The notes: generated from the letters alone by a model not told the origin. Shown: positions 10,816 through 25,836, numbered from the stretch's first letter. The stretch is DNA of 32,000 bases from Scandinavium sp. (GCA_036495715.1 DASXML010000051.1:38745-70744); one strand, 5' to 3'. Numbers and translations: made by a program.

Positions 10816-10847
10816 CGTCGGGGCGCTGTTTTAGCTGGTGGTTAACG

Positions 10848-11192
10848 ATGAATAACACATTACAGGAGTTGATTGGTCAAGTGACTAAATGGATTGAGAT
10901 TTATTTCCCGGCGATTTGTGCCGGTATTATGGCCGCAGCAATCAATATTTTAATGGGTGTCAGAGCCAGTGAGCCGCCAAAGAGAAATGTAACAGGGGGC
11001 GCTATATGTGGGCTTATTGCGACAGGTTGCTACTCATTCGCAATTTATTTAGGTATGCCACCTGAAGCGGGCATTTTCTTTGGCGGGTTCCTCGGCTTTC
11101 TCGGCCCTGATGGCATCAAAGAGATTTTTGTCACTGCTGGCAACGTTATCAAAAAACGCAGGTCTGGAGGGTTAACAGATGCAAATAAGTAA
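10848..11192 (+). CDS. Holin (three predicted TM segments and a charged C-terminus)
   Basis: Hydrophobic segments IYFPAICAGIMAAAINILMGV, GGAICGLIATGCYSFAIYLG and GIFFGGFLGFLG, with the tail KKRRSGGLTDANK. It overlaps the endolysin start. Confidence 0.7.
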   Translation: MNNTLQELIGQVTKWIEIYFPAICAGIMAAAINILMGVRASEPPKRNVTGGAICGLIATGCYSFAIYLGMPPEAGIFFGGFLGFLGPDGIKEIFVTAGNVIKKRRSGGLTDANK

Positions 11193-11646: not shown

Positions 11647-12173
11647 TGCGCACGCTATGGAAGCCGCTGACCGCTGGCGGCTTAATTCTGCTGGCTCTGT
11701 GCTGGTTTTCCCATGCGCGCTATGAATCTGGCTATCAGGCGGCGGATTCATCCTGGAAACTGAAGGACGAAAAGCGCCAGAAAGCAAACGCGCTGGCGCT
11801 GGCCAGCAAACAGGCCGACGAGCGAAGCAAGGAGAAAGAACGACGTGACGCCGCAGACAAAGCAGCAGCAGAAGCGGACACACAACTTGCTAAAGCGCGT
11901 GCTGATGCCGCTGATGCTGAGCGTACTGGTGACCAGTTGCGCGCAACAATATCAGCCATCCGCAAGCAGTTTGCAGCAAGTGAAACCGGCAGATTATCCG
12001 CAGTTGCCGCAGCAAGCTCGGCAAGAGCCAATACCGGCATTTTGCTTGCCAACGTGCTTGAAAGCGCTGACAAGCGAGCGGGAGAACTGGCGGAATACGC
12101 TGACAGGGCAAGAATAGCCGGTCAGACATGCGAGAAAATTTACAATCAAGTAACCAAAGGAAATCAACAATGA
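11646..12173 (+). CDS. Rz: i-spanin (Rz-like)
   Basis: ATG overlaps the endolysin TGA (TGATG). It has an N-terminal TM segment (LTAGGLILLALCWF) followed by a long charged coiled coil. Confidence 0.85.
   Translation: MRTLWKPLTAGGLILLALCWFSHARYESGYQAADSSWKLKDEKRQKANALALASKQADERSKEKERRDAADKAAAEADTQLAKARADAADAERTGDQLRATISAIRKQFAASETGRLSAVAAASSARANTGILLANVLESADKRAGELAEYADRARIAGQTCEKIYNQVTKGNQQ
11905..12117 (+). CDS. Rz1: o-spanin lipoprotein (Rz1-like), embedded in the +1 frame of Rz
   Basis: MPLMLSVLVTSC carries a lipobox (VTSC). The mature part is Pro/Gln-rich with Cys residues, and the ORF lies entirely inside Rz. Confidence 0.8.
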   Translation: MPLMLSVLVTSCAQQYQPSASSLQQVKPADYPQLPQQARQEPIPAFCLPTCLKALTSERENWRNTLTGQE

Positions 12174-12406
12174 GCGAAGCAAAACCACAGGACGGCAGCA
12201 CCGTAAAGGGTTATCGCAGCCTGACCGACAAAGACATTGCCAACATGAATCGACTTAAAGAAATCAGCCGCCAGTTTTTGGCCCAGCTTTCATTTTTAGA
12301 TAATGGAGAGCATGACGGGCGCTGGCTGGCGATTGCTAAAACTGAAATGCAGAAAGCCTGTATGTCTGCGTGCCGAGCAGTAGCGCAACCGGATGAAGAC
12401 TGCTGA
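12170..12406 (+). CDS. Small phage accessory protein, possibly an Acb2-family cyclic-oligonucleotide sponge (anti-CBASS)
   Basis: ATGA overlap with the Rz stop. The 78-aa protein contains KGYRSLTDKDIANMNRLKE and RWLAIAKTEMQKACMSACRAV, patterns I associate with Acb2/Vs.4-like proteins. Coding is likely, but the function is tentative. Confidence 0.45.
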   Translation: MSEAKPQDGSTVKGYRSLTDKDIANMNRLKEISRQFLAQLSFLDNGEHDGRWLAIAKTEMQKACMSACRAVAQPDEDC

Positions 12407-12432
12407 ATCTGGTGAAGCCCTTGTTGGATTTA

Positions 12433-12458
12433 GCCCGGAACTGACCGGGCATTTTTTT
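12433..12458 (+). terminator. Rho-independent terminator ending the lysis/Acb2-like transcription unit
   Basis: Stem GCCCGG (12433-12438) pairs with CCGGGC (12445-12450), with a 6-nt loop, then ATTTTTTT. Confidence 0.8.
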
Positions 12459-12473
12459 GTCTGTTGACTGGCG

Positions 12474-12491
12474 GGTAACATATAAGTTACC
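12474..12491. promoter_or_regulatory. Perfect palindrome GGTAAC-ATATAA-GTTACC, a candidate operator overlapping a possible promoter (TTGTCT 12457-12462, N18, TATAAG 12481-12486)
   Basis: Read directly from the sequence, about 35 nt upstream of the HTH gene start. Confidence 0.45.
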
Positions 12492-12523
12492 TTTATTATG
12501 TGAATGCACATCAAGGGGGCTTT

Positions 12524-12829
12524 ATGGCCAGCATTGAAACTGATGAAGCAACAATCAGTTACTTAAAGGAAGACCCGCAAGCAAGGCTTGCAATCATAAA
12601 TGAGGTATACCGGCTAATAAGCGATGGTGATGTCGATGTCGCCAAAACCACATTGCGCATGGTTATCAATATGACCTGTGGATTTCGAGCCATTTCTGAT
12701 GAAGTTGGCAGACATCCAAAATCCATCATGCGCATGTTGACCCCGGATGTAGATCCAGGCATCAAGGCGTTTATGTCAGTGGTCAATGCCACAAAGCGCC
12801 AGATAACGAGCGCCGCAAAGGAGGCATAA
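12524..12829 (+). CDS. HTH DNA-binding protein resembling 'addiction module antidote' (HigA-like) proteins
   Basis: ATG at 12524 with AAGGGGG upstream. The pattern YLKEDPQARLAIINEV...DVDVAKTTLRMVINM...ISDEVGRHPKSIMRMLTP fits the antidote family as I recall it. Confidence 0.55.
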   Translation: MASIETDEATISYLKEDPQARLAIINEVYRLISDGDVDVAKTTLRMVINMTCGFRAISDEVGRHPKSIMRMLTPDVDPGIKAFMSVVNATKRQITSAAKEA

Positions 12830-12831
12830 AA

Positions 12832-13266
12832 ATGCAGAGCAATTTACATGAAACCGATTTTTACGGGTGGACGCAGCAACAGGCCGAACTGTTAAGAAAA
12901 GGGAAACTCACTGAGGTGGATGTGATGAATTTAATCGAGGAAATCGAGGACATGGGCGGCAGCGAAAAAAGGGAACTTGAATCACGTCTTGGCGTGTTGT
13001 TTATGCATTTGCTCAAGTGGCGTTATCAGCCCACACACCGTGGCCATTCATGGCGTCTGACCATTGCAGAGCAGCGCAGCAAGATTGCGCGCCGCTTGAG
13101 GAAATCGCCGTCACTCAAGTCTTCACTGGAAGAAATCGCCGCTGACGCTTACAGCGATTCACGTTATGGCGCATCGCGTGAAACCGGTCAGGTGCTGGAA
13201 GTGTTCCCGGATGATTGTCCGTGGACGCTCGCACAGGTGCTGGATGTTGACTATTTGCCAGACTAA
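12832..13266 (+). CDS. DUF29 family protein
   Basis: The N-terminus LHETDFYGWTQQQAELLRKGKLTEVDVMNLIEEIEDMG...ELESRL..LFMHLLKWRYQP is the characteristic DUF29 signature. The start lies 2 nt after the HTH gene stop. Confidence 0.8.
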   Translation: MQSNLHETDFYGWTQQQAELLRKGKLTEVDVMNLIEEIEDMGGSEKRELESRLGVLFMHLLKWRYQPTHRGHSWRLTIAEQRSKIARRLRKSPSLKSSLEEIAADAYSDSRYGASRETGQVLEVFPDDCPWTLAQVLDVDYLPD

Positions 13267-13286
13267 ACAAAGCAGCATCACACCAG

Positions 13287-13311
13287 ACCCGGCCATCGTG
13301 GCGGGTTTTTT
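13287..13311 (+). terminator. Rho-independent terminator after the DUF29 gene
   Basis: ACCCG(G)CCA pairs with TGGCGGGT, giving a stem with one bulge and a 3-nt loop, followed by TTTTTTATT. Confidence 0.7.
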
Positions 13312-13482
13312 ATTGCCCGCGCTCACAGAATCACGCGCACAGCGCGGGTGGGGCGGGGTCAATCGCTCAAACGTGCTGTTTGTAGTTGAAATAAACAGGC
13401 TTCAGAAGTAGACTAAGTGTAAGAGTCTTGCAACAAGGGCGTAAAGTCGCTTGTCCTGCCTGTGTTCGTTCTAATCTCTGCT

Positions 13483-13510
13483 ATTTAACATAATATACAT
13501 TATGCGCACC
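13483..13510 (-). other. dif: dif, the XerC/XerD chromosome dimer resolution site
   Basis: ATTTAACATAATATACATTATGCGCACC is the exact reverse complement of E. coli dif GGTGCGCATAA-TGTATA-TTATGTTAAAT (28/28). Confidence 0.9.
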
Positions 13511-13567
13511 AAAAAAAGATACGAAGAATTGTCCGCTTTGTGCGGGTAAACCCCTAAGGAGAAGCAC

Positions 13568-14032
13568 GTGAAAAAGACCATTGCCATTCTTATAGTTGGA
13601 TTGTTGTTTTCTTCATTAAACGCCAGTGCAAGCACAGAACTAGTTTTTCAGTGCATGACAAAAAGCAAAAAAACAATAAAAATAGAACGTGAAAATGAAA
13701 CTTTAAAATACACATATGGCAACGAGAAAAAAAATGACTTAACGTTGGAGACTCCGCTTTTCAGTGAGAAAATTCCAACTCTTTTTTCATCAGATGTTCA
13801 ACTTGGAAACAAATCCGGACCTTATATTTTCAACACTGTTACATTTCATAATGGAGAATATGCATATTCAGTCTCCGCATTAAGTGACATCAATGTTCCA
13901 TCAGACGAAACCTTTACAGGGGTTTATGTCAGCGGAGAGCGCATAAAAACCACTAAAATCAAATGTATAGAGGGCACCATACAAGATAACTTTGAGTCCC
14001 TCTTTGATTTTAATCGCTCACGCAACAAATAA
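13568..14032 (+). CDS. Secreted (Sec signal peptide) 154-aa protein of unknown function; a possible periplasmic immunity partner
   Basis: GTG start with AAGGAG 6 nt upstream. The signal peptide is MKKTIAILIVGLLFSSLNASA/STE. The gene is strongly AT-rich, encodes two Cys residues and is convergent with the 789-aa gene. Confidence 0.7.
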   Translation: MKKTIAILIVGLLFSSLNASASTELVFQCMTKSKKTIKIERENETLKYTYGNEKKNDLTLETPLFSEKIPTLFSSDVQLGNKSGPYIFNTVTFHNGEYAYSVSALSDINVPSDETFTGVYVSGERIKTTKIKCIEGTIQDNFESLFDFNRSRNK

Positions 14033-14059
14033 AAAATGGGCTTACTATTAGGTAAGCCC
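14028..14059 (-). terminator. Rho-independent terminator of the 789-aa gene; the hairpin is shared with the convergent gene
   Basis: Stem GGGCTTAC (14038-14045) pairs with GTAAGCCC (14052-14059). On the minus strand it is followed by ATTTTTTATTT. Confidence 0.75.
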
Positions 14060-14072
14060 TTACATCAAATCA

Positions 14073-16442
14073 CTAAATGCCACTGAATATTTTTTCGTCG
14101 AAAAACGCAATCAGATTTTTGTATCGAGCATTTTTTGTATTAGTGCCCGGGTTTACTATATTCGTCACATTATGTGATGCATTCTCTGTTATACCATCAT
14201 CAGCTTTTTTGTAAGCTTCATAAAAATCCCAAAAGAACAATGCTGACCGCACAACTTGTTTTGTTGATGCAGTAATTAACTCTGGATGCTCTTCATAATC
14301 CACTGGGTCGTTCCAGACCTTATTAGCATATCGAGTAAAGGCTCTATAATTATATCTTCCAGTGAGCTGCTTCATTCCCCTGCCCTTATAGCGCCATCCA
14401 TCCCCTGGTTCTGTATTACCATTACGCCCGCCATAAGCTTTATTGGCAATCGCTTCCTGATTTGCTCTGTGTGCAGCTGTTCGCCCGTCAATTTCCTGTT
14501 CATCAGGATGTCTTCGGTAGTAACTGAAGAGACCAGGGAGCGCTGTTGCCGCATAATTTAAACTCTCATCTATTGTGAACGTAGCCCCCGTTTCCTGATA
14601 AACCTGAGCCATAAAGTGATACAGCCGAACCTCAGTATTAAGATGACAGCGTTCCAGATTATCATTTAACTCATCCGCAACCTGCTGGAGAACCTCGTCG
14701 CTGACATTGCGACTATTCGTCCATATCTTACGCAACATTGGTAGCGTGATTTTGCCGCTTCCGGGCTTAAGCATCTCCAGAAACTCAAGCGGATGAAAAT
14801 GCCATACTGACCGCTGACTGGCGAACGGCGGCACCTTATCCATCCAGCGCGTTGCATCCAGAAATCCCCCGTTGGCCATCTTCACAACCGGGCTTTCATC
14901 CCTGACCTTAAATACCGACGACCAGCGTGTATCATCGCGGGTACTGTGCCAGTCGCTGTCGTGTTTCACTATCAGGCGTCGCGCATATTCCGGGATATTC
15001 ATCTGGTTCGTATGCAGTGCACCAAACAAATACTGGTCCTGTGATTTATCGGGATACGGGTTCGGCGGTCTTCTGTTTTCGGCGTTATGGATCAGGCTGT
15101 CATAAAACATTTTTGCCTGCGCGAACTGTGGTCCCTTTTCACCGTCAAAGTGCGAGCTGATGCTTTTCAGGGCATCAATGAGCCAGCGTTCATCCAGCGT
15201 GCGCGTAAAATCGGTTGTGTGTTCAGCCTCAATACAGTGAAAGTTTAGCCCTGCTAAATCGTGCTGGCTGAGCTGCTCCACGTCGTCCTGGTGCATCCAC
15301 GTATGCGGGCGGATCTGAAAGTATGTGACCCCGGTTTTATCCGTAAACGGGTACGTGGCATCGCGCGGAATAATTTTTCCGGCATCGGCACGGGTAATGG
15401 CGCTCATCTGCTCAAAGCTACTTTCCTCGTCCTCCCCGTTTCTCAGGTACATCGGGCGTTTCAGCTTCAGCTTAATAAACTGTTTGCCCGTTTTGATGCC
15501 CTTTACGTTTGCCACAAAATCAGGCACATGTTCATCGAGGCTCAGCAGCTCGATATGGGCTTTATAGTCCGTGGTGATAATCTGCGGATGGTTATCTTCG
15601 TCAGCCAGATCCTGAGCGCCCAGGAACCCGACCGCATCCCCTGCTTTCACCGTCACTTTCAGCGGCGCTGGCGGCACCACCACATCATCAAACACGCCGT
15701 GATTCAGGGCGCTGTGCATCCAGTCAGGCAGACACACGTAGCATTCGCCGTCAGGCTCCAGATATTCCGGGCGGATCGAGACCCAGAACAGCTCCCCGGC
15801 GGGTTTACCGTCCTGAAGACGCTGCACCAGGGCGAACGGCTCCGGCCGTTGTTCCAGTAAAAACGATTTTTGTTGCAGTACGGCAAGCGTGTCACCCTGC
15901 GTCAGCGTTCTGGCGTGGCCGTGTTTGTTTGCCAGCACGTCCGGCGCGATTTCACGGCTGTCATCGTGGCGGGAATGTTTACGCATCCGCACGCCGTGGC
16001 CTTTCTGCGTAACCCGGTAAAGCGGGCGTTTCGGAAATTCTGACAATGGCGCGATGTGCATGTACAGCTGGTACAGCGTCAGCCAGGTGGCTTCATCCTG
16101 TTCGTCGGGCTTATACACTGATTTAACCAGCACAAAGGTGCCGGACTGGCGCAGGGGGCGTTCCTGATAACACTCAATAGCCGCATAATCGCGGTTAATC
16201 CGCCATGCCACCACCTCGCCGTCCATCATGAACTGGAGCGGCACCGATTTTTCCGGCGTATCCGGATCCAGCACCGAGGCCGGGGACGATGACGTCCCGA
16301 TGTGGATCCCACCGTGCCAGTAACGATTTACGCCAAGTAACCACCACCCGTGGGCGTTTTTGCGGATGTCGGTCAGCAGCTCGTCATAGTTCTTATAGTC
16401 CCGTCCGTCGGCTTTCCGTACCGGATAACGTATGTTCATCAT
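14073..16442 (-). CDS. Large two-domain cell-wall hydrolase-like protein with an N-terminal LytM/M23-like region, a central unknown region and a C-terminal GH19 (chitinase/lysozyme-like) domain; no signal peptide
   Basis: GH19 block: LYHFMAQVYQETGATFTIDES (two Glu 9 residues apart), YGGRNGNTEPGDGWRYKGRGMKQLTGRYNY. M23-like pieces: WHGGIHIG, LYQLYMHI and VKAGDAVGFLG...YKAHIEL, where the HxH motif is degenerate. AAGGA RBS upstream and its own terminator. Confidence 0.75.
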   Translation of the reverse strand: MMNIRYPVRKADGRDYKNYDELLTDIRKNAHGWWLLGVNRYWHGGIHIGTSSSPASVLDPDTPEKSVPLQFMMDGEVVAWRINRDYAAIECYQERPLRQSGTFVLVKSVYKPDEQDEATWLTLYQLYMHIAPLSEFPKRPLYRVTQKGHGVRMRKHSRHDDSREIAPDVLANKHGHARTLTQGDTLAVLQQKSFLLEQRPEPFALVQRLQDGKPAGELFWVSIRPEYLEPDGECYVCLPDWMHSALNHGVFDDVVVPPAPLKVTVKAGDAVGFLGAQDLADEDNHPQIITTDYKAHIELLSLDEHVPDFVANVKGIKTGKQFIKLKLKRPMYLRNGEDEESSFEQMSAITRADAGKIIPRDATYPFTDKTGVTYFQIRPHTWMHQDDVEQLSQHDLAGLNFHCIEAEHTTDFTRTLDERWLIDALKSISSHFDGEKGPQFAQAKMFYDSLIHNAENRRPPNPYPDKSQDQYLFGALHTNQMNIPEYARRLIVKHDSDWHSTRDDTRWSSVFKVRDESPVVKMANGGFLDATRWMDKVPPFASQRSVWHFHPLEFLEMLKPGSGKITLPMLRKIWTNSRNVSDEVLQQVADELNDNLERCHLNTEVRLYHFMAQVYQETGATFTIDESLNYAATALPGLFSYYRRHPDEQEIDGRTAAHRANQEAIANKAYGGRNGNTEPGDGWRYKGRGMKQLTGRYNYRAFTRYANKVWNDPVDYEEHPELITASTKQVVRSALFFWDFYEAYKKADDGITENASHNVTNIVNPGTNTKNARYKNLIAFFDEKIFSGI

Positions 16443-16755
16443 CTTTCCTTAAGTGAAATCCCTCAAAACCTTAATCATCGCAGGGAGTTAAAAAAAGGGA
16501 AGCAGAAATTAACGTAACTGTATTGCGATATATGACGAAAAAGACGGCTTAGCAGGGGGCGCGAAGCGCTGGGGATTGTGCTTTATGGTATCTCGCCCTG
16601 GTATCGGCGGGCTGACGACGGGCGAATTATGACGCGTTGTCATGCCGCCTTCCATGCCTGGCGGCATCAACACATCACCGGTGCTCTCTTCCATGCTGCT
16701 GACACGAGAAGGCATCACACTAAGCCTGCCTCCTCGCACAGCTGCGGGGGCATCC

Positions 16756-17973
16756 TTAGTGTGACACCTTCCTGGCCTGAAGAATGACGACAATATCCGT
16801 TTTGTATTTTTCCGTACTTTTTGTCGCGAACCACGACGGCATAAAGGTTAATCCCGTATCGGTATCAGTCGTCTTGTTTTCCGCCAGACCGCCGATAAGA
16901 ATGATATCGCCATCCTTCACAGATACCGCCGTCTGTATGCTGCGCTTTATCAGCGTTGGCGAATTGTTCACGCCCGTGTTTGTCTTCGCAAAGTTCGACA
17001 GTTCCTGACTGATGTTCAAATCAATAACGTCGGAACGCACCCACGGCTGCACGTTAAAAATCACGCCGCTGGAACGGTATTCAACGGACTGCACGGCCTT
17101 GTCGCCTTCATACGAGACGTTCCCCAGCACGGGAACATCTTCCCCGACGGAAAACGACGCCTGCGTGCCGGATCGCGCCCTGAGCGATGGCGAGCTGACA
17201 ACATGAAAGCGGCTGTCGGTTCTGAACAGCTCATACAGTGCGGTGAGGCTCCCCGAACTGAACTTGATGAAGTTCTGATAGCCCGCTTCACCCGTGCCGC
17301 CAATCTGGATCGAAAGCTTTTCATTAAGTAACTTTGCCGCCAGTGCCAGACCGGATCCATTTCGTTCATTGGTCTGCACCTCAAAGACATATCCGCCCAC
17401 GTAAACCTCAGAGGTTGGCGTATCCACTGACGGTAACAACTGCTCTATTTTGCGGATATCCGCCCGCGAGCCGTAAAACACCAGAACATCGCCGTCCCCG
17501 TTGATATTACCGGTTCTGGCAACGGCGGGCTGAAGCGTTGCCCCCTGCACCGATTCCGCACCGGAAACGGATCCGAAATCCCCGCCGACGATCCCGCGCA
17601 GAAGGCCGGAAAGATACGCGACGCTGCGGTGTTTTGGCGCATAGACAAAGCTGAATTTCGGCTCAATGACCTGTTTTGGCGTCACCGGGAAAATATAGTC
17701 AACGCCCCCTTTCTGGCTTATCGCGATGTTCATATTCTGGAGATAACGGGCAAAAAACTGTTTTGCGTCGGTCTGCTCCGTGATGTGGAACGACACGATA
17801 CGCGGATCTGCCGCCAGTTCCGGAGCCAGCATAAAGGGCTGTTTCAGCACATCAGCGTAAAAAAAGGTGATGGCCTTCGGGAGCTGCATCGCGTCAAGAC
17901 GAAAATCCACGCTAACCGCCATCGCGGACAGGCTGAACAGACTCAGCAGGCAGGACAAAAGTAACTTTTTCAT
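16756..17973 (-). CDS. Inovirus pIV-type secretin
   Basis: Signal peptide MKKLLLSCLLSLFSLSAMA. The C-terminal secretin-like region includes GEDVPVLGNV and DGDIILIGGL. ATGA overlap with the Zot/pI-like gene. Confidence 0.85.
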   Translation of the reverse strand: MKKLLLSCLLSLFSLSAMAVSVDFRLDAMQLPKAITFFYADVLKQPFMLAPELAADPRIVSFHITEQTDAKQFFARYLQNMNIAISQKGGVDYIFPVTPKQVIEPKFSFVYAPKHRSVAYLSGLLRGIVGGDFGSVSGAESVQGATLQPAVARTGNINGDGDVLVFYGSRADIRKIEQLLPSVDTPTSEVYVGGYVFEVQTNERNGSGLALAAKLLNEKLSIQIGGTGEAGYQNFIKFSSGSLTALYELFRTDSRFHVVSSPSLRARSGTQASFSVGEDVPVLGNVSYEGDKAVQSVEYRSSGVIFNVQPWVRSDVIDLNISQELSNFAKTNTGVNNSPTLIKRSIQTAVSVKDGDIILIGGLAENKTTDTDTGLTFMPSWFATKSTEKYKTDIVVILQARKVSH

Positions 17974-19007
17974 GATTTATCACCGCTGAAATAAGAGACG
18001 ATTTCACCGTCAACGATGCCATTCAGCATCATGCCGTCATTTGAAAATCCCGCACGGGATACCATGCGGTTAAGCCCGGATGCATCAGTGAGCACCACAT
18101 AGCTTTTACCTTCCCGGCTTAGCGTCCCGTTGACGCGCCAGCGCTTCGACAGTGACGGTTTCGCGGGTTCCGGTTGGACATTCTGCATTCCCTGAGACAC
18201 GACAGCGCCGGGTGGCAAAGTCCCCTGGCTGTCCGCCAAAGTTACTTTTTTATCGGACCCGGCTGAATGAAAAAACGACGTGATGACATAAGCGGATCCG
18301 CACATACACATAATGATGATGGTGAACAGCACCCAGAGTTTCTTTTGCTTAAAAATATTCTGGCGGTCATCCACGGTCTGCTCATTGCCCTGCCCGCCAT
18401 AATGCGAGTGATACAGCCCGTAAATTTCATCCTCAAATTTATTCTGGTAACTGGTAATTTTCGACGACTTAAATAATTTAGCCCCGGCAAACACGTCCAC
18501 CCTGTAGCGTTTTTTCAGCCCCAGCGAAACGTGTTTCTGCATTCTGTACGTGGTCTCAATTCGCGTTTTGATAAAACGGGCAATGGAATCCAGACTCTGG
18601 TTAATCACCACAATATCGCAGGTGGTCGCCGTTTCAGCATCGGACATATGGCGGTGTTCAGCGAAAAAGGCGCGGTGCTCTTTACACAGGCTTTTATCCG
18701 CATCCCAGAACCGCCAGGCTTCATCAATACAGATTAAATCCCCGTGCTGACAAAACGTCTGCTCAGCATCCTTGTACGGTAAAAAGTTTTTATCCGTCAC
18801 CTGATCGTTGCTGACGTGAATGATTTCCCCGAGCGTATTCAGGTCTTTGCTATTGCGACGGGCATAATCAGAAAAGTTACTTTCGTTCACGCCGTCGATA
18901 TTGGTCACAATACGTCTGCCCGACAGATACGCCGGAAGAATAACCGACTTGACGACCTCATACGATTTTCCGTGACCGGGAATACCAATATATGCAGAAA
19001 TTGCCAT
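17970..19007 (-). CDS. Zot / pI-type assembly ATPase
   Basis: N-terminal Walker A in MAISAYIGIPGHGKSYEVV, a central TM segment (LWVLFTIIIMCMCGSAYVITSFF), and the expected position between pVI and pIV. Confidence 0.9.
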   Translation of the reverse strand: MAISAYIGIPGHGKSYEVVKSVILPAYLSGRRIVTNIDGVNESNFSDYARRNSKDLNTLGEIIHVSNDQVTDKNFLPYKDAEQTFCQHGDLICIDEAWRFWDADKSLCKEHRAFFAEHRHMSDAETATTCDIVVINQSLDSIARFIKTRIETTYRMQKHVSLGLKKRYRVDVFAGAKLFKSSKITSYQNKFEDEIYGLYHSHYGGQGNEQTVDDRQNIFKQKKLWVLFTIIIMCMCGSAYVITSFFHSAGSDKKVTLADSQGTLPPGAVVSQGMQNVQPEPAKPSLSKRWRVNGTLSREGKSYVVLTDASGLNRMVSRAGFSNDGMMLNGIVDGEIVSYFSGDKS

Positions 19008-19009
19008 GA

Positions 19010-19297
19010 TTAACCTATTACCGGAAGACGACGAATAATAAACCGGGTAAACATTGCGCTGAATACCAGGGGGATCCCGATATCGGCTTTAAAGTAATAC
19101 AGGAAAAACCACATTCCGTCCGGCAGCAGATTAAACAGCCCGGCAATATCGCCAGACTGCGGCAATCTGTCCGCCACCACGGAGAAAAGTTCCTTTACGG
19201 CAAAAAAGAGCGTGGTGAATAACACAAACTTTAATACCGCCCCTCTTAACAGATACGCCAGAACGGCATTAAACGCAGAAACAAGAATGCCAAACAT
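19010..19297 (-). CDS. pVI / Ace-like minor coat protein
   Basis: 95 aa and very hydrophobic. The C-terminus MFTRFIIRRLPVIG resembles the Ace C-terminus as I recall it. Correct position. Confidence 0.65.
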   Translation of the reverse strand: MFGILVSAFNAVLAYLLRGAVLKFVLFTTLFFAVKELFSVVADRLPQSGDIAGLFNLLPDGMWFFLYYFKADIGIPLVFSAMFTRFIIRRLPVIG

Positions 19298-19304
19298 ATG
19301 TCAC

Positions 19305-20648
19305 CTATGCACTGAGCACCACACGAAGCGCCACAATTGCCCAAATAAGCGTTGAAACGACTTTTGCAATATCCCGTAATTTTTCAAGTAACAGGCACTG
19401 TGAATCAATGGTGATTTCCGTTCCAAATATCTGGAAACTGCCCGTCGGACATACTGAGGCATGGCCTTCCAGCTTCATATTATCGATCCACGACAGCGGT
19501 GAAATAACCGGAGCCATTATCTGTCTGGCCGTGGGGACATCATCAATATCGGGCGCTTTAATATCCGGGTTCTCACCTAAATCAATTGAGGGCTTATCAG
19601 ATGTCGCTACTTTATTGGGAATATTCACCGTCCCGTCTGCTTTAAACGCCGAATCAAACAGGGATGATTTACTGACGGACGTATTATCTTTCGCCAGAAG
19701 CTGTTTAATTTCATTTGCCGTAATCGCATCCGTATCGGCGAACGGCACACCGTCATAGCCCGTCTGTGTAGCCGCATCATGCATCAAATCATTCATGGCC
19801 TGCGCCAGCACATCCGCCTTCACCTCTGTCTGGCCTGCAACCTGCTGTAATGCTTCTGCCGTCGTCAGCACAGACGCGCCCAGAGACGGCAGCGTTTCCC
19901 CGTCCTTTAACGTGCGCTGATAATTGTAAATCGTCACCTGCGTTGCCCCGGTCTGGCCGTTGGGAGAATACCAGCGCTCGGACGTACTGTTCACGCTTGC
20001 CCAGTTCTTAAAGACAGGCTCATCGGTCAGGGAATAAATGTTATACGTACTGCCCGTGGTTGTTTTCGTAAACGCCGGAAGATACGGCATCCCGCGCACA
20101 TCGCGCCCGGCGGTGTCCTTCATGTAAACCAGTTTACCATCCCAGAACTTCAGTTCGCCGATACCCGCCGACTCAGGCGAACGATAAACCGGAACCGGCG
20201 AAAAAGGGACTTTTGTATCCGTGCCGTCAACGGTGACGGTATAACTCCCGTCGGAACTGGCCTCACCGTTCACCATTTTCACGGCATCATCAAACACGTC
20301 GCCAAACAGCTGCGTCACCGTGTACGCGGTTCCTGCCGTATTCAGTCCTGCCCAGGTGGCCTTACCTGCTTTTGACAGAAAAGAAGACTTCGGAACCAGC
20401 AGTTCCCGCGCCAGTGCGGCTTTATTGACGTTCTGTATGGTTGCGGCCGCAACCTGTCGGGTAAACGCAATATCCGCCGCCTGCTCTGCCGCATAAATGG
20501 CCGAACGTCGGGCAATCACTGAACCGAATAATTCACCCAGTCCGATTAACACCGGATTGGCATAAGCAAGTCGCGGAAATGAACCGTAAGCGATCATAAC
20601 ACAGGTGAAATACACAATTAGCCGTTTAAGCCCTGAATTACCGCCCAT
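19305..20648 (-). CDS. pIII-like receptor-binding/adsorption protein
   Basis: ATG at 20648 gives the signal peptide MGGNSGLKRLIVYFTCVMIAYGSFPRLAYA/NP, and there is a C-terminal membrane anchor (VVSTLIWAIVALRVVLSA). The listed GTG at 20738 would read through the gVIII terminator. Confidence 0.7.
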   Translation of the reverse strand: MGGNSGLKRLIVYFTCVMIAYGSFPRLAYANPVLIGLGELFGSVIARRSAIYAAEQAADIAFTRQVAAATIQNVNKAALARELLVPKSSFLSKAGKATWAGLNTAGTAYTVTQLFGDVFDDAVKMVNGEASSDGSYTVTVDGTDTKVPFSPVPVYRSPESAGIGELKFWDGKLVYMKDTAGRDVRGMPYLPAFTKTTTGSTYNIYSLTDEPVFKNWASVNSTSERWYSPNGQTGATQVTIYNYQRTLKDGETLPSLGASVLTTAEALQQVAGQTEVKADVLAQAMNDLMHDAATQTGYDGVPFADTDAITANEIKQLLAKDNTSVSKSSLFDSAFKADGTVNIPNKVATSDKPSIDLGENPDIKAPDIDDVPTARQIMAPVISPLSWIDNMKLEGHASVCPTGSFQIFGTEITIDSQCLLLEKLRDIAKVVSTLIWAIVALRVVLSA

Positions 20649-20699
20649 GCACACAATAACCCCCAGAGAAATACAACGAGATCGACCATTTCCGGCACC

Positions 20700-20733
20700 A
20701 TAAATAAAGGGAGGATAATGATTACCCTCCCTT
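20700..20733 (-). terminator. Rho-independent terminator directly after the major coat gene
   Basis: The minus strand reads AAGGGAGG-GTAATCATTAT-CCTCCCTT followed by TATTTAT. The stems are at 20707-20714 and 20726-20733. Confidence 0.7.
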
Positions 20734-20752
20734 TTCACTTTTATTGTTGTTA

Positions 20753-20986
20753 TTACGCCGAACGCACCATACGCAGTACGTGTTTCACGCCAGCAAAGAG
20801 CGCATACAGCCCGGCGACCGCTGCCGCAATACCCAGAATCGCCGTACCCACATCACCAAAATCAATTGCGCCTGTCAGTGCGGTGAGATCGAATTTACTG
20901 GTGCCTTCCGCCGCCATGACGGACGGTGCAGTAACAGCAGAGACAGCGGCCAGTGCAACCAAAGTTACTTTTTTCTTGATGGACAT
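20753..20986 (-). CDS. Major coat protein (pVIII / Cep-like)
   Basis: Signal peptide ending VMA/AEG. The mature ~52 aa has an acidic N-terminus, a hydrophobic core (VGTAILGIAAAVAGLYALFAGV) and a basic C-terminus (KHVLRMVRSA). Confidence 0.85.
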   Translation of the reverse strand: MSIKKKVTLVALAAVSAVTAPSVMAAEGTSKFDLTALTGAIDFGDVGTAILGIAAAVAGLYALFAGVKHVLRMVRSA

Positions 20987-20995
20987 ATTTTCACC

Positions 20996-21193
20996 TTATA
21001 CATTTTTGATAAAACGTAATACCGTACCCACTCCCAGAGAGAATAAATAAAGCGATATTACCGAGGTAAACGCAACGCCCCAGACCTTACCTAAATAAGC
21101 GTAATCAATACTGTCTGGCGCATTGCCTGTTAACGTTAAAGAAATTTGCTGGCAGACCTGCGCAGCGTCACACACCGTTCCGGTGATATCCAT
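20996..21193 (-). CDS. Minor coat protein (pVII/pIX position)
   Basis: 65 aa with a single C-terminal TM segment (VWGVAFTSVISLYLFSLGVGTVL), located between the ssDNA-binding and major coat genes. Confidence 0.5.
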   Translation of the reverse strand: MDITGTVCDAAQVCQQISLTLTGNAPDSIDYAYLGKVWGVAFTSVISLYLFSLGVGTVLRFIKNV

Positions 21194-21208
21194 TATTTCA
21201 CTGTGTGA

Positions 21209-21496
21209 TTATTTGGTGTTTTCAGAAACCGGAACCAGCTTAATGTTTTTTACTTTTAATGCGCCGAAATCGCCCACATCAAAAGACGCATTATCCAGCG
21301 TATAAAAACCTGCCGGATAAGGTGCGGCATCTTTATCCAGACTGATAACAAACTGCTTCGGGTAAACACCGCCGTTATAAATATAGGCAATCTGCTCGCG
21401 GAAATTTAATACCTCCCCGGTTTGTTTGGATGTTACCTGTTTAGTGCGGACTTTACCATCGACATCGTTAATTTCAATCTTGACCACATTCACCAT
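21209..21496 (-). CDS. Gene V-type ssDNA-binding protein
   Basis: Collinear with M13 gVp as I recall it. YPKQFVISLDKDAAPYPAGFYTLDNASFDVGDFGALKVKNIKLVP compares with YPVLVKITLDEGQPAYAPGLYTVHLSSFKVGQFGSLMIDRLRLVP. Confidence 0.85.
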   Translation of the reverse strand: MVNVVKIEINDVDGKVRTKQVTSKQTGEVLNFREQIAYIYNGGVYPKQFVISLDKDAAPYPAGFYTLDNASFDVGDFGALKVKNIKLVPVSENTK

Positions 21497-21512
21497 GATT
21501 ATTTCCTTTCAT

Positions 21513-22640
21513 TTAAAACGGGCATTTTCCCGTCTGGAGTTTTTCATTGAGTAACGTCTGGTAAACCGGAGGGATATCCAGACTTAATTTCGCATTAATT
21601 AAATGTTCTTCCCGCACTATCATTGATATGACGGTCTTAATATCGCCTTCAAAGAAATGAAAGACTTTCGCTATCGTTGACGATGCCTGATTACGTAACC
21701 ATCTGACTTTTGCTTCAATCGTATCGACGGCCTTACGTCCAAATAGTTTTGGAATGGAATATGGTGCAACAGGGCTTATTTGTGCAGCATACGCACACAG
21801 CCCCACATATATCCCGGCAATATTCAGCAGCACATCAACCGACACGCCTTTTAATTCCACTTCTGAACGGTACCAGATACCGGAAACCTTTTGTTCCAGC
21901 GCCTTGTTATAAATTCGCCAGTAAACGCGGGACTGACGGGAACCCACCGTCAGGATCTCTTTTGTCAGACAACCATTGGCATCACGGCCACGGGATTCAT
22001 CAATTTTGGGTTTCGGACCCGCTCCGCCGTAAAAGGCATCATCGGAGTACGCCGAACTGGCGGCATCACAGGTATAGATACCATCGTAATCGTCGGTCGC
22101 CAGGTCAATACGCTTGAGCGTGTAAATATCCAGATGCTGAAGCCATTTGTGGATCTTCTGCGGGGTCGTCCCGCTGAATACGTGGGCGCAGCCCTTGCCG
22201 GTGATCTGCACGTAGAACGTGTCTTTATTCCCGCCCCAGAACAGCTTGCCGTAAAACTCGCTGCCGCCCTCTTCACTGTACAGCACGGCGGAATCTTCAT
22301 ACGCAAATCCACCTTTTCCCAGCGAGGGACCGACGGCCAGACCAAACACGGCGGCGATCCACGTCTTTAAACGCGAGTGGTAACAGGCATACAAATCCAT
22401 GGCGAGCTGGCATTTTTGCTCTTCGGTCATGCCTTCATCGTCGGATCCGGGCAGATCGTCATACCCTTCAGAACAGGCATAAACACTTGAATGCTTATAG
22501 TGCCGATAGGACGGCAGATACTGGAATTTACGCCATTCAAAGCCCTGCTCCGGGAACGTATGCACGGACTTCATAACCGAAAGCGGCGCAGTGAAGGCCA
22601 GCCAGTCAGTAATGACGTAGCGTTCAGCTGCATCAGCCAT
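21513..22640 (-). CDS. Rolling-circle replication initiator (Rep_trans / RstA-like)
   Basis: Motifs RIDLATDDYDG, VYWRIYNKALE and YRSEVELKG fit the Rep_trans family. ATG at 22640 gives an ATGGCTGA overlap with the upstream small ORF, whereas the listed TTG at 22679 overlaps it by 47 nt. Confidence 0.75.
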   Translation of the reverse strand: MADAAERYVITDWLAFTAPLSVMKSVHTFPEQGFEWRKFQYLPSYRHYKHSSVYACSEGYDDLPGSDDEGMTEEQKCQLAMDLYACYHSRLKTWIAAVFGLAVGPSLGKGGFAYEDSAVLYSEEGGSEFYGKLFWGGNKDTFYVQITGKGCAHVFSGTTPQKIHKWLQHLDIYTLKRIDLATDDYDGIYTCDAASSAYSDDAFYGGAGPKPKIDESRGRDANGCLTKEILTVGSRQSRVYWRIYNKALEQKVSGIWYRSEVELKGVSVDVLLNIAGIYVGLCAYAAQISPVAPYSIPKLFGRKAVDTIEAKVRWLRNQASSTIAKVFHFFEGDIKTVISMIVREEHLINAKLSLDIPPVYQTLLNEKLQTGKCPF

Positions 22641-22827
22641 TGAGCGACTCCCGATAGCCGGTGAACTGACCCGAAGCAATCACCGTTGTCGCCAGCAGAA
22701 AATCATCGCCAAAATGCAGGTGGCATTCTTTGATCAACTCATCGAACGAATGGAAGAAATCCCACTCAGGTCCGACCTGAGCGTTGATGCCACAGTTTTC
22801 GAGAAAATCAAAGTAGACGATGTTCAT
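22633..22827 (-). CDS. Small acidic protein (64 aa), first gene of the inovirus minus-strand operon
   Basis: ATG start, translationally coupled to the Rep gene. No family recognised. Confidence 0.5.
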   Translation of the reverse strand: MNIVYFDFLENCGINAQVGPEWDFFHSFDELIKECHLHFGDDFLLATTVIASGQFTGYRESLNG

Positions 22828-22924
22828 ATGCCCTCAATTGCAAGATGAAAGACCTGACAAAAGCCGACCACATCAAAAATAACACATGAGTTCATTAGCT
22901 TTTTCGATTACAAACATACATTAC

Positions 22925-22940
22925 TGAACATGTGAGTTCA
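22925..22940. promoter_or_regulatory. Inverted repeat TGAAC-ATGTGA-GTTCA; a candidate operator in the divergent control region
   Basis: Read directly from the sequence. Related GTTCA half-sites occur at 22885-22895 (CATGAGTTCAT) and 22959-22966 (ATGTTCAT). Confidence 0.4.
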
Positions 22941-22951
22941 AGAGGCCTTGA

Positions 22952-22978
22952 TTGATAATGTTCATGAGCGGATATAAT
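22952..22978 (+). promoter_or_regulatory. Candidate sigma-70 promoter for the plus-strand regulator operon (TTGATA, N15, TATAAT)
   Basis: -35 at 22952-22957 and a consensus -10 at 22973-22978. The spacer is short at 15 nt. The start codon is at 23010 with GGAG upstream. Confidence 0.45.
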
Positions 22979-23009
22979 TGAATGAAATTGCACTTATGGA
23001 GCGTAAGAG

Positions 23010-23192
23010 ATGGCAAAACGCATGACTTACAACGTGACAGAAGAACGAAAGATGAAGCTGGAACGACTGGCGATTAATACCAGCGTTAAATTAGGAAAAA
23101 CAATCACATGGACTGAATTGCTGGGATATCTGATTGATAATTATGCAAAAGACGCTGCTGACGATCTAATGTCAAGCAGACAAAAGACATAA
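23010..23192 (+). CDS. Small ribbon-helix-helix-like regulator (RstR-equivalent position)
   Basis: 60 aa. MTYNVTEERKMKLERLAINTSVKLGKTITWTELLGYLIDNY fits a beta-strand plus two helices (RHH) pattern. It is divergent from the Rep operon. Confidence 0.5.
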   Translation: MAKRMTYNVTEERKMKLERLAINTSVKLGKTITWTELLGYLIDNYAKDAADDLMSSRQKT

Positions 23193-23216
23193 TAAAACAG
23201 ACATGGGTTCCACAGT

Positions 23217-23483
23217 ATGAACGTGCCGTTGAAAGCAACTATAAGACTAAAAAAGCAAGAATCTGCAGAACTACAAGATCTGGCGTTTTCATTGAATAAA
23301 GAAGCACTTAAATACGATCAAAAGCGCTATTTCACTGAGTCTGACCTTGTTCACTTCGTGCTGGAGAACACGCTGGGTTGTGTGGAAGTCACCCATGGCG
23401 GCTACCTTAGCCTTAACCGTGAAAAAATGGCCGAGGTCATCACCGTACTGGAGACAAGAAACGGTGAAAGAGCTGCACGCTGA
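23217..23483 (+). CDS. Hypothetical small protein, possibly a second RHH-like regulator
   Basis: 88 aa. KATIRLKKQESAELQDLAFSLN...SDLVHFVLENTL. Confidence 0.4.
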   Translation: MNVPLKATIRLKKQESAELQDLAFSLNKEALKYDQKRYFTESDLVHFVLENTLGCVEVTHGGYLSLNREKMAEVITVLETRNGERAAR

Positions 23484-23601
23484 CGAACTGCAAAAAGTTT
23501 GATCGTAACGGTCGGAGCGCGCTTTATCCCGGAGTTATCCTGAGACTACCCCCGTAGTACATGACGGGGGTTTAACAGTGCCCTTCTTTGAGAGCGATGG
23601 A

Positions 23602-23928
23602 ATGAAGAGACGTAAACTCGATAAATGGCTTAAAAAATTCGAAGAGAAACACGGCGTAACAGCTGGCGATCCAAATGTCGTTGGCTATGCCCTGTTCAAC
23701 AAGGAAAAACGTGCATTCGTGAGCCTCACTGATGGTGATTACGAACCGACAGACATTTACACAGGCGATCTTGACGATGCCTTCCTGACTGACAACATGG
23801 GTGATGCCTTCAGTGTCATGATGGAACTGGAAGATTACGACAACATCAGCATTGTTCCGGTGATTTATAACGAGCTGTTTGGGATGACGGTGAAACCCGG
23901 CTCATTAGACACACATAATCAAGGTTGA
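23602..23928 (+). CDS. Hypothetical acidic protein (108 aa)
   Basis: ATG at 23602 is preferred over the listed GTG at 23578, which abuts the hairpin ACCCCCGT/ACGGGGGT at about 23548-23571. Confidence 0.45.
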   Translation: MKRRKLDKWLKKFEEKHGVTAGDPNVVGYALFNKEKRAFVSLTDGDYEPTDIYTGDLDDAFLTDNMGDAFSVMMELEDYDNISIVPVIYNELFGMTVKPGSLDTHNQG

Positions 23929-23936
23929 ATGGATTT

Positions 23937-24031
23937 GGTTCGCACAATGACGTTATGTGTAAATAGGCCGCTGCGGTGCTCGATTCTCGCAGCGGCCTAT
24001 TCAACATAACGCGTGCTACATTATGCGTACC
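23937..24031. repeat. Forked inverted repeat made of two dif-like sites; a candidate folded ssDNA attP remnant (CTXphi-type)
   Basis: Left arm 23937-23975. Right arm 23988-24031. Perfect 14-bp stem AATAGGCCGCTGCG/CGCAGCGGCCTATT with a 12-nt loop. Outer parts are XerD-arm-like and XerC-arm-like, with central regions of unequal length. Confidence 0.7.
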
Positions 24032-24111
24032 AATATTGTAACAGCAAAGTTGTAATGTCCGCCTATGGCTAAGTTAAGATGTCCGGCGTGTATAATCAAG
24101 TAAGGATTACC

Positions 24112-24891
24112 ATGACGGCTCTCGCAGCGGAGTTTTTCACTTTGGATGAAGTTAACCGACTCAAGATTATTCAGGACGTCATCGACCGGCGTCTGACAAC
24201 ACAGATGGCAGCGCAGCGGCTTGGGATATCCGACCGTCAGTGTCGCCGTCTTCTTGCGCGTTATCGTGAAGATGGTCCACTTGGCATGACCAGCCGTCGC
24301 CGTGGTAAAGCAAGCAACCATCAGTTGCCTCAGGGACTGGCCGCATACGCGCTGAATATTATTCGCGAACGCTATAACGATTTCGGGCCGACGCTGGCCT
24401 GTGAAAAACTGTCTGAGGTTCATGGAGTTCATCTTTCAAAAGAAACAGTTCGCAAACTCATGACTCAGGCCAGTCTTTGGGTCCCACGCAAGTACGACAA
24501 AGTGCTTTACCTGATTGAAGACAGCGAATTCAGTCGTCGGGCGATTGGAAAATACATCGATGTCTGGCATTACCCTGACGGACATAAAGAGCTCCGGCTT
24601 AATGGCGTATCACTTCCCTACTCCACCTATGACAAGCTTTCTGAAATCGATCAGGGGGCCATTGTGGACAACAAACGTCTGGGGCGGGCTCTGGAAATGG
24701 CGCAACTGGTTCAGGCCGAGCGCGATAACAACCGGTCCCAGTCCGTGCCAGCTGGAGATGGCCCTTCACGCAGGCGTAAAGCGCCTACGACGAAGAAATC
24801 CCAGCGTTCCCTGGATCAGGACGATATGTTCAATGCACTGGTGAAACTTCAGTCACGCTCTGAAGAAATATTTGGGAAAAAGCAAATTTAA
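24112..24891 (+). pseudogene. ISNCY-type transposase with an internal deletion (no catalytic core)
   Basis: The N-terminal HTH part (LTTQMAAQRLGISDRQCRRLLARYREDGPLGMTSRRRGKASN...FGPTLACEKL) joins directly to a C-terminal tail (YPDGHKELRLNGVSLPYSTYDKL...IVDNKRLG). It is 259 aa versus the ~450 aa I expect. TATAAT at 24091-24096 and TAAGGA upstream. Confidence 0.65.
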
Positions 24892-24914
24892 ACCCCTGAA
24901 TTATATCAGGGGTT
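24891..24914. terminator. Bidirectional hairpin terminator between convergent genes
   Basis: AACCCCTGA (24891-24899) pairs with TCAGGGGTT (24906-24914). A T-rich tract follows on the minus strand. Confidence 0.6.
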
Positions 24915-24922
24915 TCCTGCCG

Positions 24923-25300
24923 TCAGATTTTTTCCTGATTGACCCGTGCGGAGAGTTCCTGATGGCTTTCTTTCCTTTCGCTGTAGCGGTCGGCAAGATA
25001 ACCTGCGTGTCCTTTCAGGAGTAAGGTAATTTTGAATAATTCTTCTGTAACGTCCACAATCCGGTCATACCAGGCTGAAGGTTTCATGCGTCCTTCTCCA
25101 TCAAATTCCTGCCATGCCTTTGGCACTGACGATTGGTTCGGAATGGTGCACATACGCATCCAGCGGCCAAGTATCCGCATCTGATTTACCGTATTAAATG
25201 ACTGCGAGCCGCCGCAAACCTGCATTACGGCCAGTGTTTTGCCCTGGGACGGACGAACAGCATCTTCACTCAAGGGAACCCGTGCGTACCCAATTAGCAT
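24923..25300 (-). pseudogene. C-terminal fragment of a flavodoxin-like-fold NAD(P)H dehydrogenase (quinone)
   Basis: The sequence from [16 protein letters not shown] onwards resembles the second half of Flavodoxin_2-type reductases. The N-terminal nucleotide-binding part is absent and there is no convincing start. Confidence 0.45.
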
Positions 25301-25504
25301 GGTATCAATTCCAGTAAGTCACCTGATTTGAGTATAGATGGAAAATGAATACTGGAATGAGATGGTGTAATCCTGCATCGCGGGTTGCAGACCACTAAAT
25401 AATGAGGCGACGATGGGTCCACAAAACGGTCGTTTTATGGAAAATAAGTGTAGCGGCATTCAGAAGCAGAAGATCCCATTACATGAGATCTCCCGCCCAG
25501 GTAT

Positions 25505-25714
25505 TTAATTGCTCAGTTCTGCTGTCATATATACCCGGTTTTTATACAGGGCACTGACGATTTTATAGGACGCATTTTCACTGGCTGCCTGTTGAGCCAC
25601 TTTGGCCTCTGCACCTTCGAGCGTCGAATCGGTCACACTGACAGTTTTGGCGAAGACGTTAGCACTCATAAAAGCAAGGGCAGATATTAACGCAATACGT
25701 TTAGCTGAAAACAT
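25505..25714 (-). CDS. YdgH/BhsA/McbA-family (DUF1471) small periplasmic stress protein
   Basis: 69 aa with the signal peptide MFSAKRIALISALAFMSANVFA, then VSVTDSTLEGAEAKVAQQAASENASYKIVSA, which is typical of the family. Confidence 0.8.
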   Translation of the reverse strand: MFSAKRIALISALAFMSANVFAKTVSVTDSTLEGAEAKVAQQAASENASYKIVSALYKNRVYMTAELSN

Positions 25715-25836
25715 GGAATAACCTCACAACATTATGATGACATGCATACCAGACCGCTTCCGTTATTCACGAAAGTGGCTGGTATGGCATATATTATTTC
25801 AGGAAATAATCACTAAGTGGCTACAGATTTGGGTAA

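Follow-up and report, generated by a model that had tools for sequence, protein, structure and literature searches.

Gene content of the element

The 32,000-nucleotide (nt) stretch of Scandinavium sp. DNA analysed here (GCA_036495715.1, DASXML010000051.1:38745-70744; hereafter the window, to which all positions refer) carries, at positions 13500 to 24020, a complete filamentous phage genome of the Inoviridae, which overlaps at one end an exact match to the dif recombination site of Escherichia coli and encodes its own secretin. A preliminary description, made from the sequence alone, had proposed an integrase-less inovirus integrated at dif, with an operon in the order small open reading frame (ORF), Rep_trans initiator, gene V, coat proteins, pIII, pVI, Zot and pIV. 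Pfam and PHROGs profile searches of the ORFs, on which the gene assignments below are based, support every one of these identifications, and the Inoviridae gene set is complete, in that every gene of the operon has Pfam or PHROG support and a circle of 10,521 bp has been recovered. The phage genes and associated features are as follows (aa, amino acids; profile matches with E-values in brackets).

13500..24020, minus: whole phage genome of 10,521 bp (window minus strand = phage (+) strand)
22633..22827, minus: leader ORF of the operon, 64 aa (phrog_3104, 1e-6)
21513..22640, minus: RstA-type rolling-circle initiator, Rep_trans, 375 aa (PF02486, 2.8e-20; phrog_453, 3.6e-92)
21209..21496, minus: gene V-type single-stranded DNA (ssDNA)-binding protein (Phage_DNA_bind), 95 aa (PF02303, 7e-18; phrog_1199, 3e-24)
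20996..21193, minus: small hydrophobic minor coat or membrane protein, 65 aa (phrog_3679, 7e-13; 39% identity to the CUS-1 'membrane protein')
20753..20986, minus: pVIII major coat protein with signal peptide, 77 aa (phrog_2186, 3e-16; Phage_Coat_B, 3e-4)
20706..20734, minus: terminator-like hairpin directly 3' of the major coat gene (13-bp stem, then a T-run; a match to consensus only)
19305..20648, minus: pIII-like adsorption protein with signal peptide and C-terminal membrane anchor, 447 aa from the gene-caller start (phrog_3942, 9e-57)
19010..19297, minus: pVI-like minor coat protein, 95 aa (DUF2523, 9e-9; phrog_974, 3e-19)
17970..19007, minus: pI/Zot-family assembly ATPase, 345 aa (PF05707, 3e-24; phrog_197, 3e-72)
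16756..17973, minus: pIV secretin, 405 aa (PF00263, 4e-25; phrog_1012, 'protein IV of M13', 1.6e-122, full length)
16708..16771, minus: hairpin at the gene IV end, in the packaged strand (-24.1 kcal/mol, z = -4.1)
23010..23192, plus: divergent regulator candidate in the RstR position, 60 aa (phrog_2503, 3.5e-31)
23217..23483, plus: second divergent small protein, 88 aa (phrog_5642, 1e-15)
23602..23928, plus: ORF adjoining the phage attachment site (attP), 108 aa, in a variable region that differs in a sibling phage (L224, below)

The phage ORFs are all intact and their starts overlap or are coupled, the secretin start overlapping the pI stop by 4 nt, and no integrase or recombinase domain was detected in any ORF of the element with Pfam, PHROGs or NCBIfam profiles. 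The initiator is 35% identical in amino-acid sequence to RstA of CTXΦ across 97% of its length, and the leader ORF is conserved jointly with it, being 45-65% identical in all of the Rep_trans relatives examined. The combination put forward in the preliminary description, i.e. replication and integration in the manner of CTXΦ joined to an Ff-style operon with its own secretin, is borne out by this resemblance to RstA, by a forked attP and by the full-length match of the secretin to the profile of the M13 protein. The hairpin at the end of gene IV corresponds in position to the morphogenetic signal annotated in phage I2-2, has a similar counterpart in the E. coli circle pLD39-1-6kb, and is on this analysis a candidate packaging (morphogenetic) signal.

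Attachment sites, circular forms and integration

The E. coli-type dif 28-mer GGTGCGCATAATGTATATTATGTTAAAT is matched exactly at 13483-13510 on the minus strand; this is the sole match in the window at up to three mismatches, and none of 100 shuffled sequences gave one. The cumulative GC skew has its maximum at about 13000-13500 and declines beyond, and since this peak coincides with dif the region can be taken as the replication terminus. At the other end of the element, two inverted dif-like sites (A and B) flank a GC-rich stem-loop, forming a fork. The sites and their presumed origins are listed here.

13483..13510, minus: functional-looking dif, apparently rebuilt by integration (exact 28-mer; circular contig L002, below, has GGTGCGCATAA as the attP XerC arm)
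13483-13499, minus: XerD arm and central region of the rebuilt dif, assigned to the host
13500-13510, minus: XerC arm of the rebuilt dif, GGTGCGCATAA, assigned to the phage
23937..24031, minus: forked attP as kept in the prophage (from its fold and its similarity to forks in dif prophages of E. coli)
23937-23964: fork site A, GGTTCGCACAA-TGACG-TTATGTGTAAAT
23965-23998: fork stem-loop, GC-rich
23999-24031: fork site B, with the minus-strand reading GGTACGCATAA-TGTAGCACGCG-TTATGTTGAAT
24021-24031, minus: presumed old host XerC arm, GGTACGCATAA, the final 11 nt of site B

When folded as minus-strand ssDNA the fork reaches -35.4 kcal/mol (z = -9.1; none of 200 shuffled sequences folds as well); in this structure the arms for XerC and XerD are base-paired, and an internal loop is made up of the central regions. 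Site B has a central region of 11 nt, as against 6, and the inverted site A lies 34 nt away; judged by their layout, these two inverted dif-like sites are of the attP1/attP2 design of CTXΦ. The fork is about 86% identical at the nucleotide level to those of E. coli dif prophages, and the same design is visible in CUS-1 and in E24377A.

Phage DNA is framed by a 17-nt direct repeat, the two copies of which are spaced 10,521 nt apart. Contig L002, assembled in Logan from an independent sequencing run (SRR11833493) and found through an exact match to the pI protein, is 10,551 bp long with a terminal overlap of 30 nt, and hence closes to a circle of 10,521 bp. It aligns to the window from 21495 to 13496, and then from 24033 to 21466, at 99.96-100% identity, and its junction, ...TTTTTTT GGTGCGCATAA TGTAGCACGCG TTATGTTGAAT AGGCC..., is an intact attP linking the cargo end to the fork. 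A metagenome contig of 122.8 kb from the Joint Genome Institute (L001) is identical to window positions 13496-29007 and, beyond the cargo end, re-enters attP, whilst a third dataset (Logan run SRR31572242) contains a sibling circle, L224, of 10,582 bp, which is 96.9% identical over 8 kb, has an attP of the same kind, and carries a regulator region partly unlike that of the window. Because a circular contig of the exact length joins both ends via an intact attP, the element is a discrete unit, which occurs in several datasets either as a replicative circle or in tandem; YpfΦ occurs in both of these forms (PMC4266046). The proposition that the fork is the remnant of an older, separate integrative mobile element exploiting Xer (IMEX), and neighbours the phage by chance, would be in keeping with the arrays of elements that build up at dif regions and with the IS1202-family remnant that abuts the same junction; the fork lies inside both circles, L002 and L224, however, and unless these are misassembled the proposition is ruled out.

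The XerC arms carry a marker, in that arm position 4 is G in the circle and A at the 24021-24031 junction. This difference confines the crossover to the shared CGCATAATGTA (arm position 4 to central position 5), an interval that brackets the XerC cleavage site and thus supports exchange on the XerC side. Furthermore, the prophage junctions are as a XerC-side single-strand exchange predicts, with the fork kept at one end and dif rebuilt at the other. The same junction logic, with an A/G difference at arm position 1, is evident in the dif prophages of E. coli E24377A, where the rebuilt dif reads AGTGCGCATAA..., and 503440, where the copy-to-copy junction has an AGTG arm and the chromosome-side junction the host GGTG arm. 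CUS-1Φ and YpfΦ have been listed among the IMEX of the CTX type, in which (+)ssDNA is the substrate, XerC acts first, host replication completes the reaction, integration is irreversible and phage is produced by rolling-circle replication (PMC4246890).

The element is, very probably, a temperate filamentous phage, i.e. a 10,521-nt IMEX of the CTXΦ type within the Inoviridae, that integrates at dif by means of the host XerC and XerD recombinases. In the postulated pathway both inverted dif-like sites of the packaged (+) strand would fold into a forked hairpin, on which XerC would exchange a single pair of strands with the chromosomal dif where XerC arm and central region meet, the intermediate then being resolved by host replication. 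At 13483-13510 this would rebuild a working dif from the phage XerC arm and the host central region and XerD arm, and at 23999-24031 it would leave a hybrid junction, made up of the host XerC arm and the phage central region and XerD arm, beside a fork that is by then double-stranded and inactive. New genomes would arise by rolling-circle replication directed by the RstA-type Rep, and the ssDNA would be coated by the gene V protein; a filament built from pVIII, pIII, pVI and the small protein would leave the cell without lysis through pI/Zot and the phage's own pIV secretin, with the operon probably repressed by the small divergent proteins. Whereas the sites, the genes, the boundaries and the circular or tandem junction are seen directly in the data, we infer that integration depends on Xer, that virions are produced, that the operon is repressed and that the cargo acts as a toxin. 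The locus provides a clean natural record of a CTXΦ-type reaction, in which single-base XerC-arm markers tell the phage arm from the host arm.

Integration of the VGJΦ or TLCΦ type, with a double-stranded attP and reversible, Xer-mediated excision, we consider very unlikely. Whilst Xer excision could in principle yield the circular form, and site B alone is dif-like with good XerC and XerD arms, the 11-nt central region and the inverted site A correspond to attP1/attP2 of CTXΦ and are accompanied by a strong ssDNA fold, a fork at one end and a clean dif at the other fit the hairpin model, and CUS-1 and YpfΦ, which have the same fork design, are classed as CTX-type (PMC4246890).

The phage is probably still active. 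That the locus instead holds a fixed, defective prophage remnant, its genes intact by chance and without replication or movement, seems unlikely: although the single copy in the window and the view that integration of the CTX type is irreversible (PMC4246890) would suit a remnant, none of the ORFs is disrupted and their starts overlap or are coupled, a circle or tandem junction is present in two other datasets at 99.96-100% identity, and a sibling with swapped cargo indicates recent activity. In addition, draft genomes of E. coli, of Citrobacter portucalensis and of Enterobacter hormaechei encode proteins belonging to the same 90%-identity clusters, in many cases on contigs of 10.2-11 kb.

Several points nevertheless weigh against an active phage integrated by Xer. 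A circular-looking contig could equally derive from a tandem prophage array; only one prophage copy is present in the window, and a single copy of CTXΦ is insufficient for phage production; ssDNA, virions and Xer dependence are postulated; GGTACGCATAA is assumed to be the host's own XerC arm; and an empty site was not found in any related genome searched. In a search through the flanking short-chain dehydrogenase/reductase gene, the nearest sequences were those of Entomohabitans teleogrylli and Pantoea piersonii (91.6% nucleotide identity to the right flank), in which synteny ends at about 25274-25734 and no dif is present within 10 kb. When metagenomes were scanned for the presumed host dif, GGTACGCATAATGTATATTATGTTAAAT, 61 contigs were obtained, of which none has the flanks of the window, and every contig found by exact-protein look-ups with the two genes flanking the element was either occupied or truncated. 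Neither the element nor the left flank had a megablast match among 50,697 phage records, and in 5,426 complete E. coli genomes megablast matched no more than the fork and part of the toxin gene. The right flank of the element has no counterpart in E. coli genomes, for which reason E. coli was rejected as the host; proteins of the window are on record from a metagenome-assembled genome labelled Scandinavium sp. A Logan contig (L230, SRR11835595; equivalent to window 6832-13497) carries the end of the neighbouring tailed prophage and breaks off within the dif central region at 13497, i.e. a few bases short of where empty and occupied sites would first differ.

Relationship to known filamentous phages

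The group of CUS-1 (E. coli O18:K1:H7) and YpfΦ (also CUS-2; Yersinia pestis), the classic enterobacterial phages that integrate at dif, resembles the element in lying at dif without an integrase, in a fork of two inverted dif-like sites built to the same plan, and in an intact dif rebuilt at the cargo end. Gene order is also shared, with Zot and the phage's own secretin last, as is the placing of cargo ORFs in the interval from the secretin gene to dif and of variable ORFs by the fork. The CUS-1 locus of strain UTI89 reads dif, two small ORFs, GspD, Zot, DUF2523, a pIII-like protein (520 aa), coat, membrane protein, gene V DNA-binding protein, Rep, a divergent helix-turn-helix (HTH) regulator, fork and hipA. 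Amino-acid identities to CUS-1 are 49.5% for pIV (its GspD), 44% for pI, 46% for pVI and 47% for pVIII, and the C-terminal 178 aa of the pIII-like protein are 32% identical to the 520-aa CUS-1 protein; the position of the cargo is also that of YPO2280a/2281 in YpfΦ and of ctxAB in CTXΦ. In contrast, the Rep of CUS-1 is of the gpII type (Phage_CRI and G2P_X_C) where Rep_trans is present here, its gene V protein has no detectable similarity to that of the window, and its regulator is an HTH_3 protein as opposed to the 60-aa small protein; CUS-1 and YpfΦ also carry other cargo, in genomes of 7.1-8.7 kb compared with 10.5 kb. Since it has neither the gpII-type Rep nor the RstR-like HTH repressor that serve to delimit the group, the element is, on its gene content, a relative of CUS-1/YpfΦ and not a member.

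The preliminary description had held that the CUS and Ypf phages rely on host secretins, and had regarded the joining of secretin and dif integration as an unusual mosaic. The premise is incorrect, since YpfΦ encodes a secretin, named 'GspD2' (YPO2280) in a 2023 paper (PMC10354491), which was placed together with YPO2279 in the 'secretion' module of that phage (PMC4266046), and the GspD of CUS-1 is likewise phage-encoded. With it falls the notion of an unusual mosaic: Rep_trans, secretin and dif are already found together in E24377A, in 503440 (as a tandem pair) and in several inovirus contigs of IMG/VR. Zot and a secretin are likewise encoded by deposited saliva inoviruses, which also have a 'replication initiation factor' and dif-like sites in inverted pairs, and a relative of the pIV-pI region is present in approximately 188 of the 5,426 complete E. 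coli genomes. Host-Xer integration combined with a phage-encoded export channel is what an established group of enterobacterial phages normally has. It would be tempting to generalise that filamentous phages integrating by Xer use the secretins of the host, and that those with a secretin gene do not integrate; this is wrong, and in Enterobacterales Xer integration and an own secretin are commonly found together. The novelty here is modest, and consists in a lineage with shuffled modules and a 3-kb toxin/immunity cargo.

Relatives in E. coli also lie at dif, in agreement with the preliminary description. The E24377A/503440 dif prophage and related IMG/VR inovirus contigs resemble the element in Rep_trans (46% amino-acid identity), leader ORF (45%) and pIV (53.5%), in the forked attP and in the location at dif, beside hipB, with a tandem copy in 503440; they differ in pI, pVI, pIII and pVIII, which are too divergent for tblastn, in the absence of toxin cargo, and in size (about 8.3 kb). 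The closest assembly module is that of pLD39-1-6kb, a 6,938-bp circular 'plasmid' of E. coli LD39-1 that represents an episomal inovirus, with amino-acid identities of 83% for pIV, 83% for pVI, 80% for the minor protein, 74% for pVIII, 72% for pIII and 71% for pI, whereas its Rep is of the gpII type, its gene V protein is only 40% identical, and it has neither dif-like fork nor cargo. The closest replication modules, at 72-75% amino-acid identity, are in IMG/VR contigs with different assembly genes. As the closest assembly and replication modules thus lie in different phages, the phage is, by these comparisons, a modular recombinant of a kind usual among inoviruses.

CTXΦ of Vibrio cholerae shares with the element an RstA-family Rep, a single-strand forked attP with XerC-first integration (postulated here, as above) and cargo by the dif-proximal end; it differs in its RstR, which is an HTH protein, and in its coat and assembly genes, which are unrelated in sequence. 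CTXΦ moreover has no secretin gene, and exits via the host EpsD. The Ff phages (f1, M13 and fd), IKe and I2-2 have in common with the element the order II-V-(VII/IX)-VIII-III-VI-I-IV, an own pIV secretin, the gene V fold family, a hairpin that follows gene IV and a terminator that follows gene VIII. The Ff phages differ in pIV (that of f1 is only 27% identical, over 60% of the length), in their gpII-type Rep and in lacking a dif-like attP, and we know of no instance of their integration.

Probable toxin/immunity cargo and neighbouring DNA

The region between gene IV and the dif-proximal end contains the following features.

13518..16511, no strand assigned: cargo cassette of toxin and putative immunity gene
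13568..14032, plus: putative periplasmic immunity protein, 154 aa (signal-peptide-like N-terminus read from the sequence)
14073..16442, minus: putative polymorphic peptidoglycan-hydrolase toxin, 789 aa (phrog_181 endolysin, 3e-41; PDB 4ok7 endolysin, 7e-17)

This 3-kb cargo explains the large size of the genome (about 10.5 kb), as had been proposed at the outset: without it, the phage would measure about 7.5 kb, which is typical of its group. The cassette is 90.7% identical at the nucleotide level to a phage-free chromosomal segment of Enterobacter ludwigii, where the 154-aa gene again accompanies the toxin gene. The N-terminal 555 aa or so of the 789-aa protein are 88-97% conserved in hundreds of enterobacterial proteins, and its C-terminus (approximately aa 560-780, about 230 aa) is a GH19-like lysozyme domain; the C-termini of its homologues are variously GH19, PF11860 muramidase or PF16754 pesticin. 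Neighbouring signal-peptide proteins vary with the toxin domain, being of 154 aa here, 148 aa in an E. coli plasmid and 118 aa in L224, and GC content drops from 55% in the toxin N-terminus to 43% in its C-terminus and 35% in the immunity gene. This conjunction of a conserved N-terminus, swapped C-termini, a changing neighbour gene and a drop in GC content is the signature of polymorphic toxin/immunity systems, and the cargo is probably such a cassette, of a bacteriocin-like kind, with a function deduced from its sequence. The 154-aa protein gave no match in Pfam or NCBIfam, and the AlphaFold2 model of the 789-aa toxin was unusable, with a predicted local distance difference test score (pLDDT) of 33. 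No LexA box (CTGT-N8-ACAG) is present anywhere in the window, so a colicin-style promoter under SOS control is not indicated.

In the sibling circle L224 the toxin has a pesticin-like (PF16754) C-terminus, in place of the GH19-like domain, and is accompanied by a different, 118-aa signal-peptide protein. Because the cargo differs on a backbone that is 96.9% identical, the toxin/immunity module appears to have been swapped recently. The E. ludwigii copy (L225, positions 9929-13854) lies about 0.9 kb from a perfect dif with no phage genes, on the XerD-arm side of dif as opposed to the XerC-arm side in the phage, and could be the remnant of another Xer-dependent element, or a coincidence. Toxin homologues are also encoded on the chromosome of Salmonella enterica subsp. 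arizonae (L228), flanked by IS3-family elements, and on the 67-kb E. coli plasmid p2 (L148); from these locations, the cassette appears to move on several kinds of vehicle.

A tentative proposal, which we regard as possible and no stronger than that, is that this inovirus lineage ferries a polymorphic peptidoglycan-hydrolase toxin, along with a periplasmic immunity protein, between hosts; a cell lysogenised at dif would then kill in a bacteriocin-like manner while being immune to the toxin allele that it carries. As the 789-aa toxin has no signal peptide, it might exit through the pI/pIV export machine of the phage. The element represents a mobile, non-lytic phage of E. coli, Citrobacter, Enterobacter and Scandinavium with interchangeable cell-wall-degrading toxin/immunity modules, and such modules could shape competition among gut and environmental enterobacteria.

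At the opposite end of the genome, the preliminary description had noted a divergent operon of small ribbon-helix-helix (RHH)-like proteins. Divergent small ORFs are indeed present, the third being of 108-116 aa, whereas the RHH label is only weakly supported: Pfam gave no match to the small proteins, no HTH match was obtained, and a PDB profile search with the 60-aa protein returned only ParG, at E = 0.63. The AlphaFold2 model of this protein (pLDDT 90.5) has an extended N-terminus followed by two helices and is compatible with an RHH fold; Foldseek on the model gave nothing significant. The 60-aa protein is widespread across Enterobacterales, and the 108-aa ORF had no match in the Pfam and PHROG searches.

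The right junction is abutted, at 24032-24891, by a truncated ISNCY/IS1202-family transposase gene (NF033594, 4.5e-41), of which the HTH part is left and the catalytic domain is missing. The corresponding insertion sequence (IS) end starts 5 bp from the XerC arm of the junction. Elements of the IS1202/ISAjo2 type, known as 'dif hunters', insert at this same 5-bp distance from XerC arms and have to date been described chiefly from Acinetobacter (PMC10132070). In a metagenome contig (L125), a comparable IS end is likewise 5 bp away from a XerC arm, in this case that of a dif beginning GGTACGCATAA. Further to the right are two likely pseudogenes, i.e. a fragment with a faint FMN_red match (24923-25300) and a zinc alcohol dehydrogenase gene split into ADH_N and ADH_zinc_N ORFs (27636-28657). 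To the left, window positions 1-13266 are occupied by the late region of a contractile-tailed prophage that ends about 220 bp from dif and has no near match among the 50,697 phage records. Its genes include those for head protease, major head protein, sheath, tape measure, holin, endolysin and Rz, together with a small ORF at about 12170-12406 that the gene caller labels as Acb2/Tad1-like (PF24729), an anti-defence sponge family.

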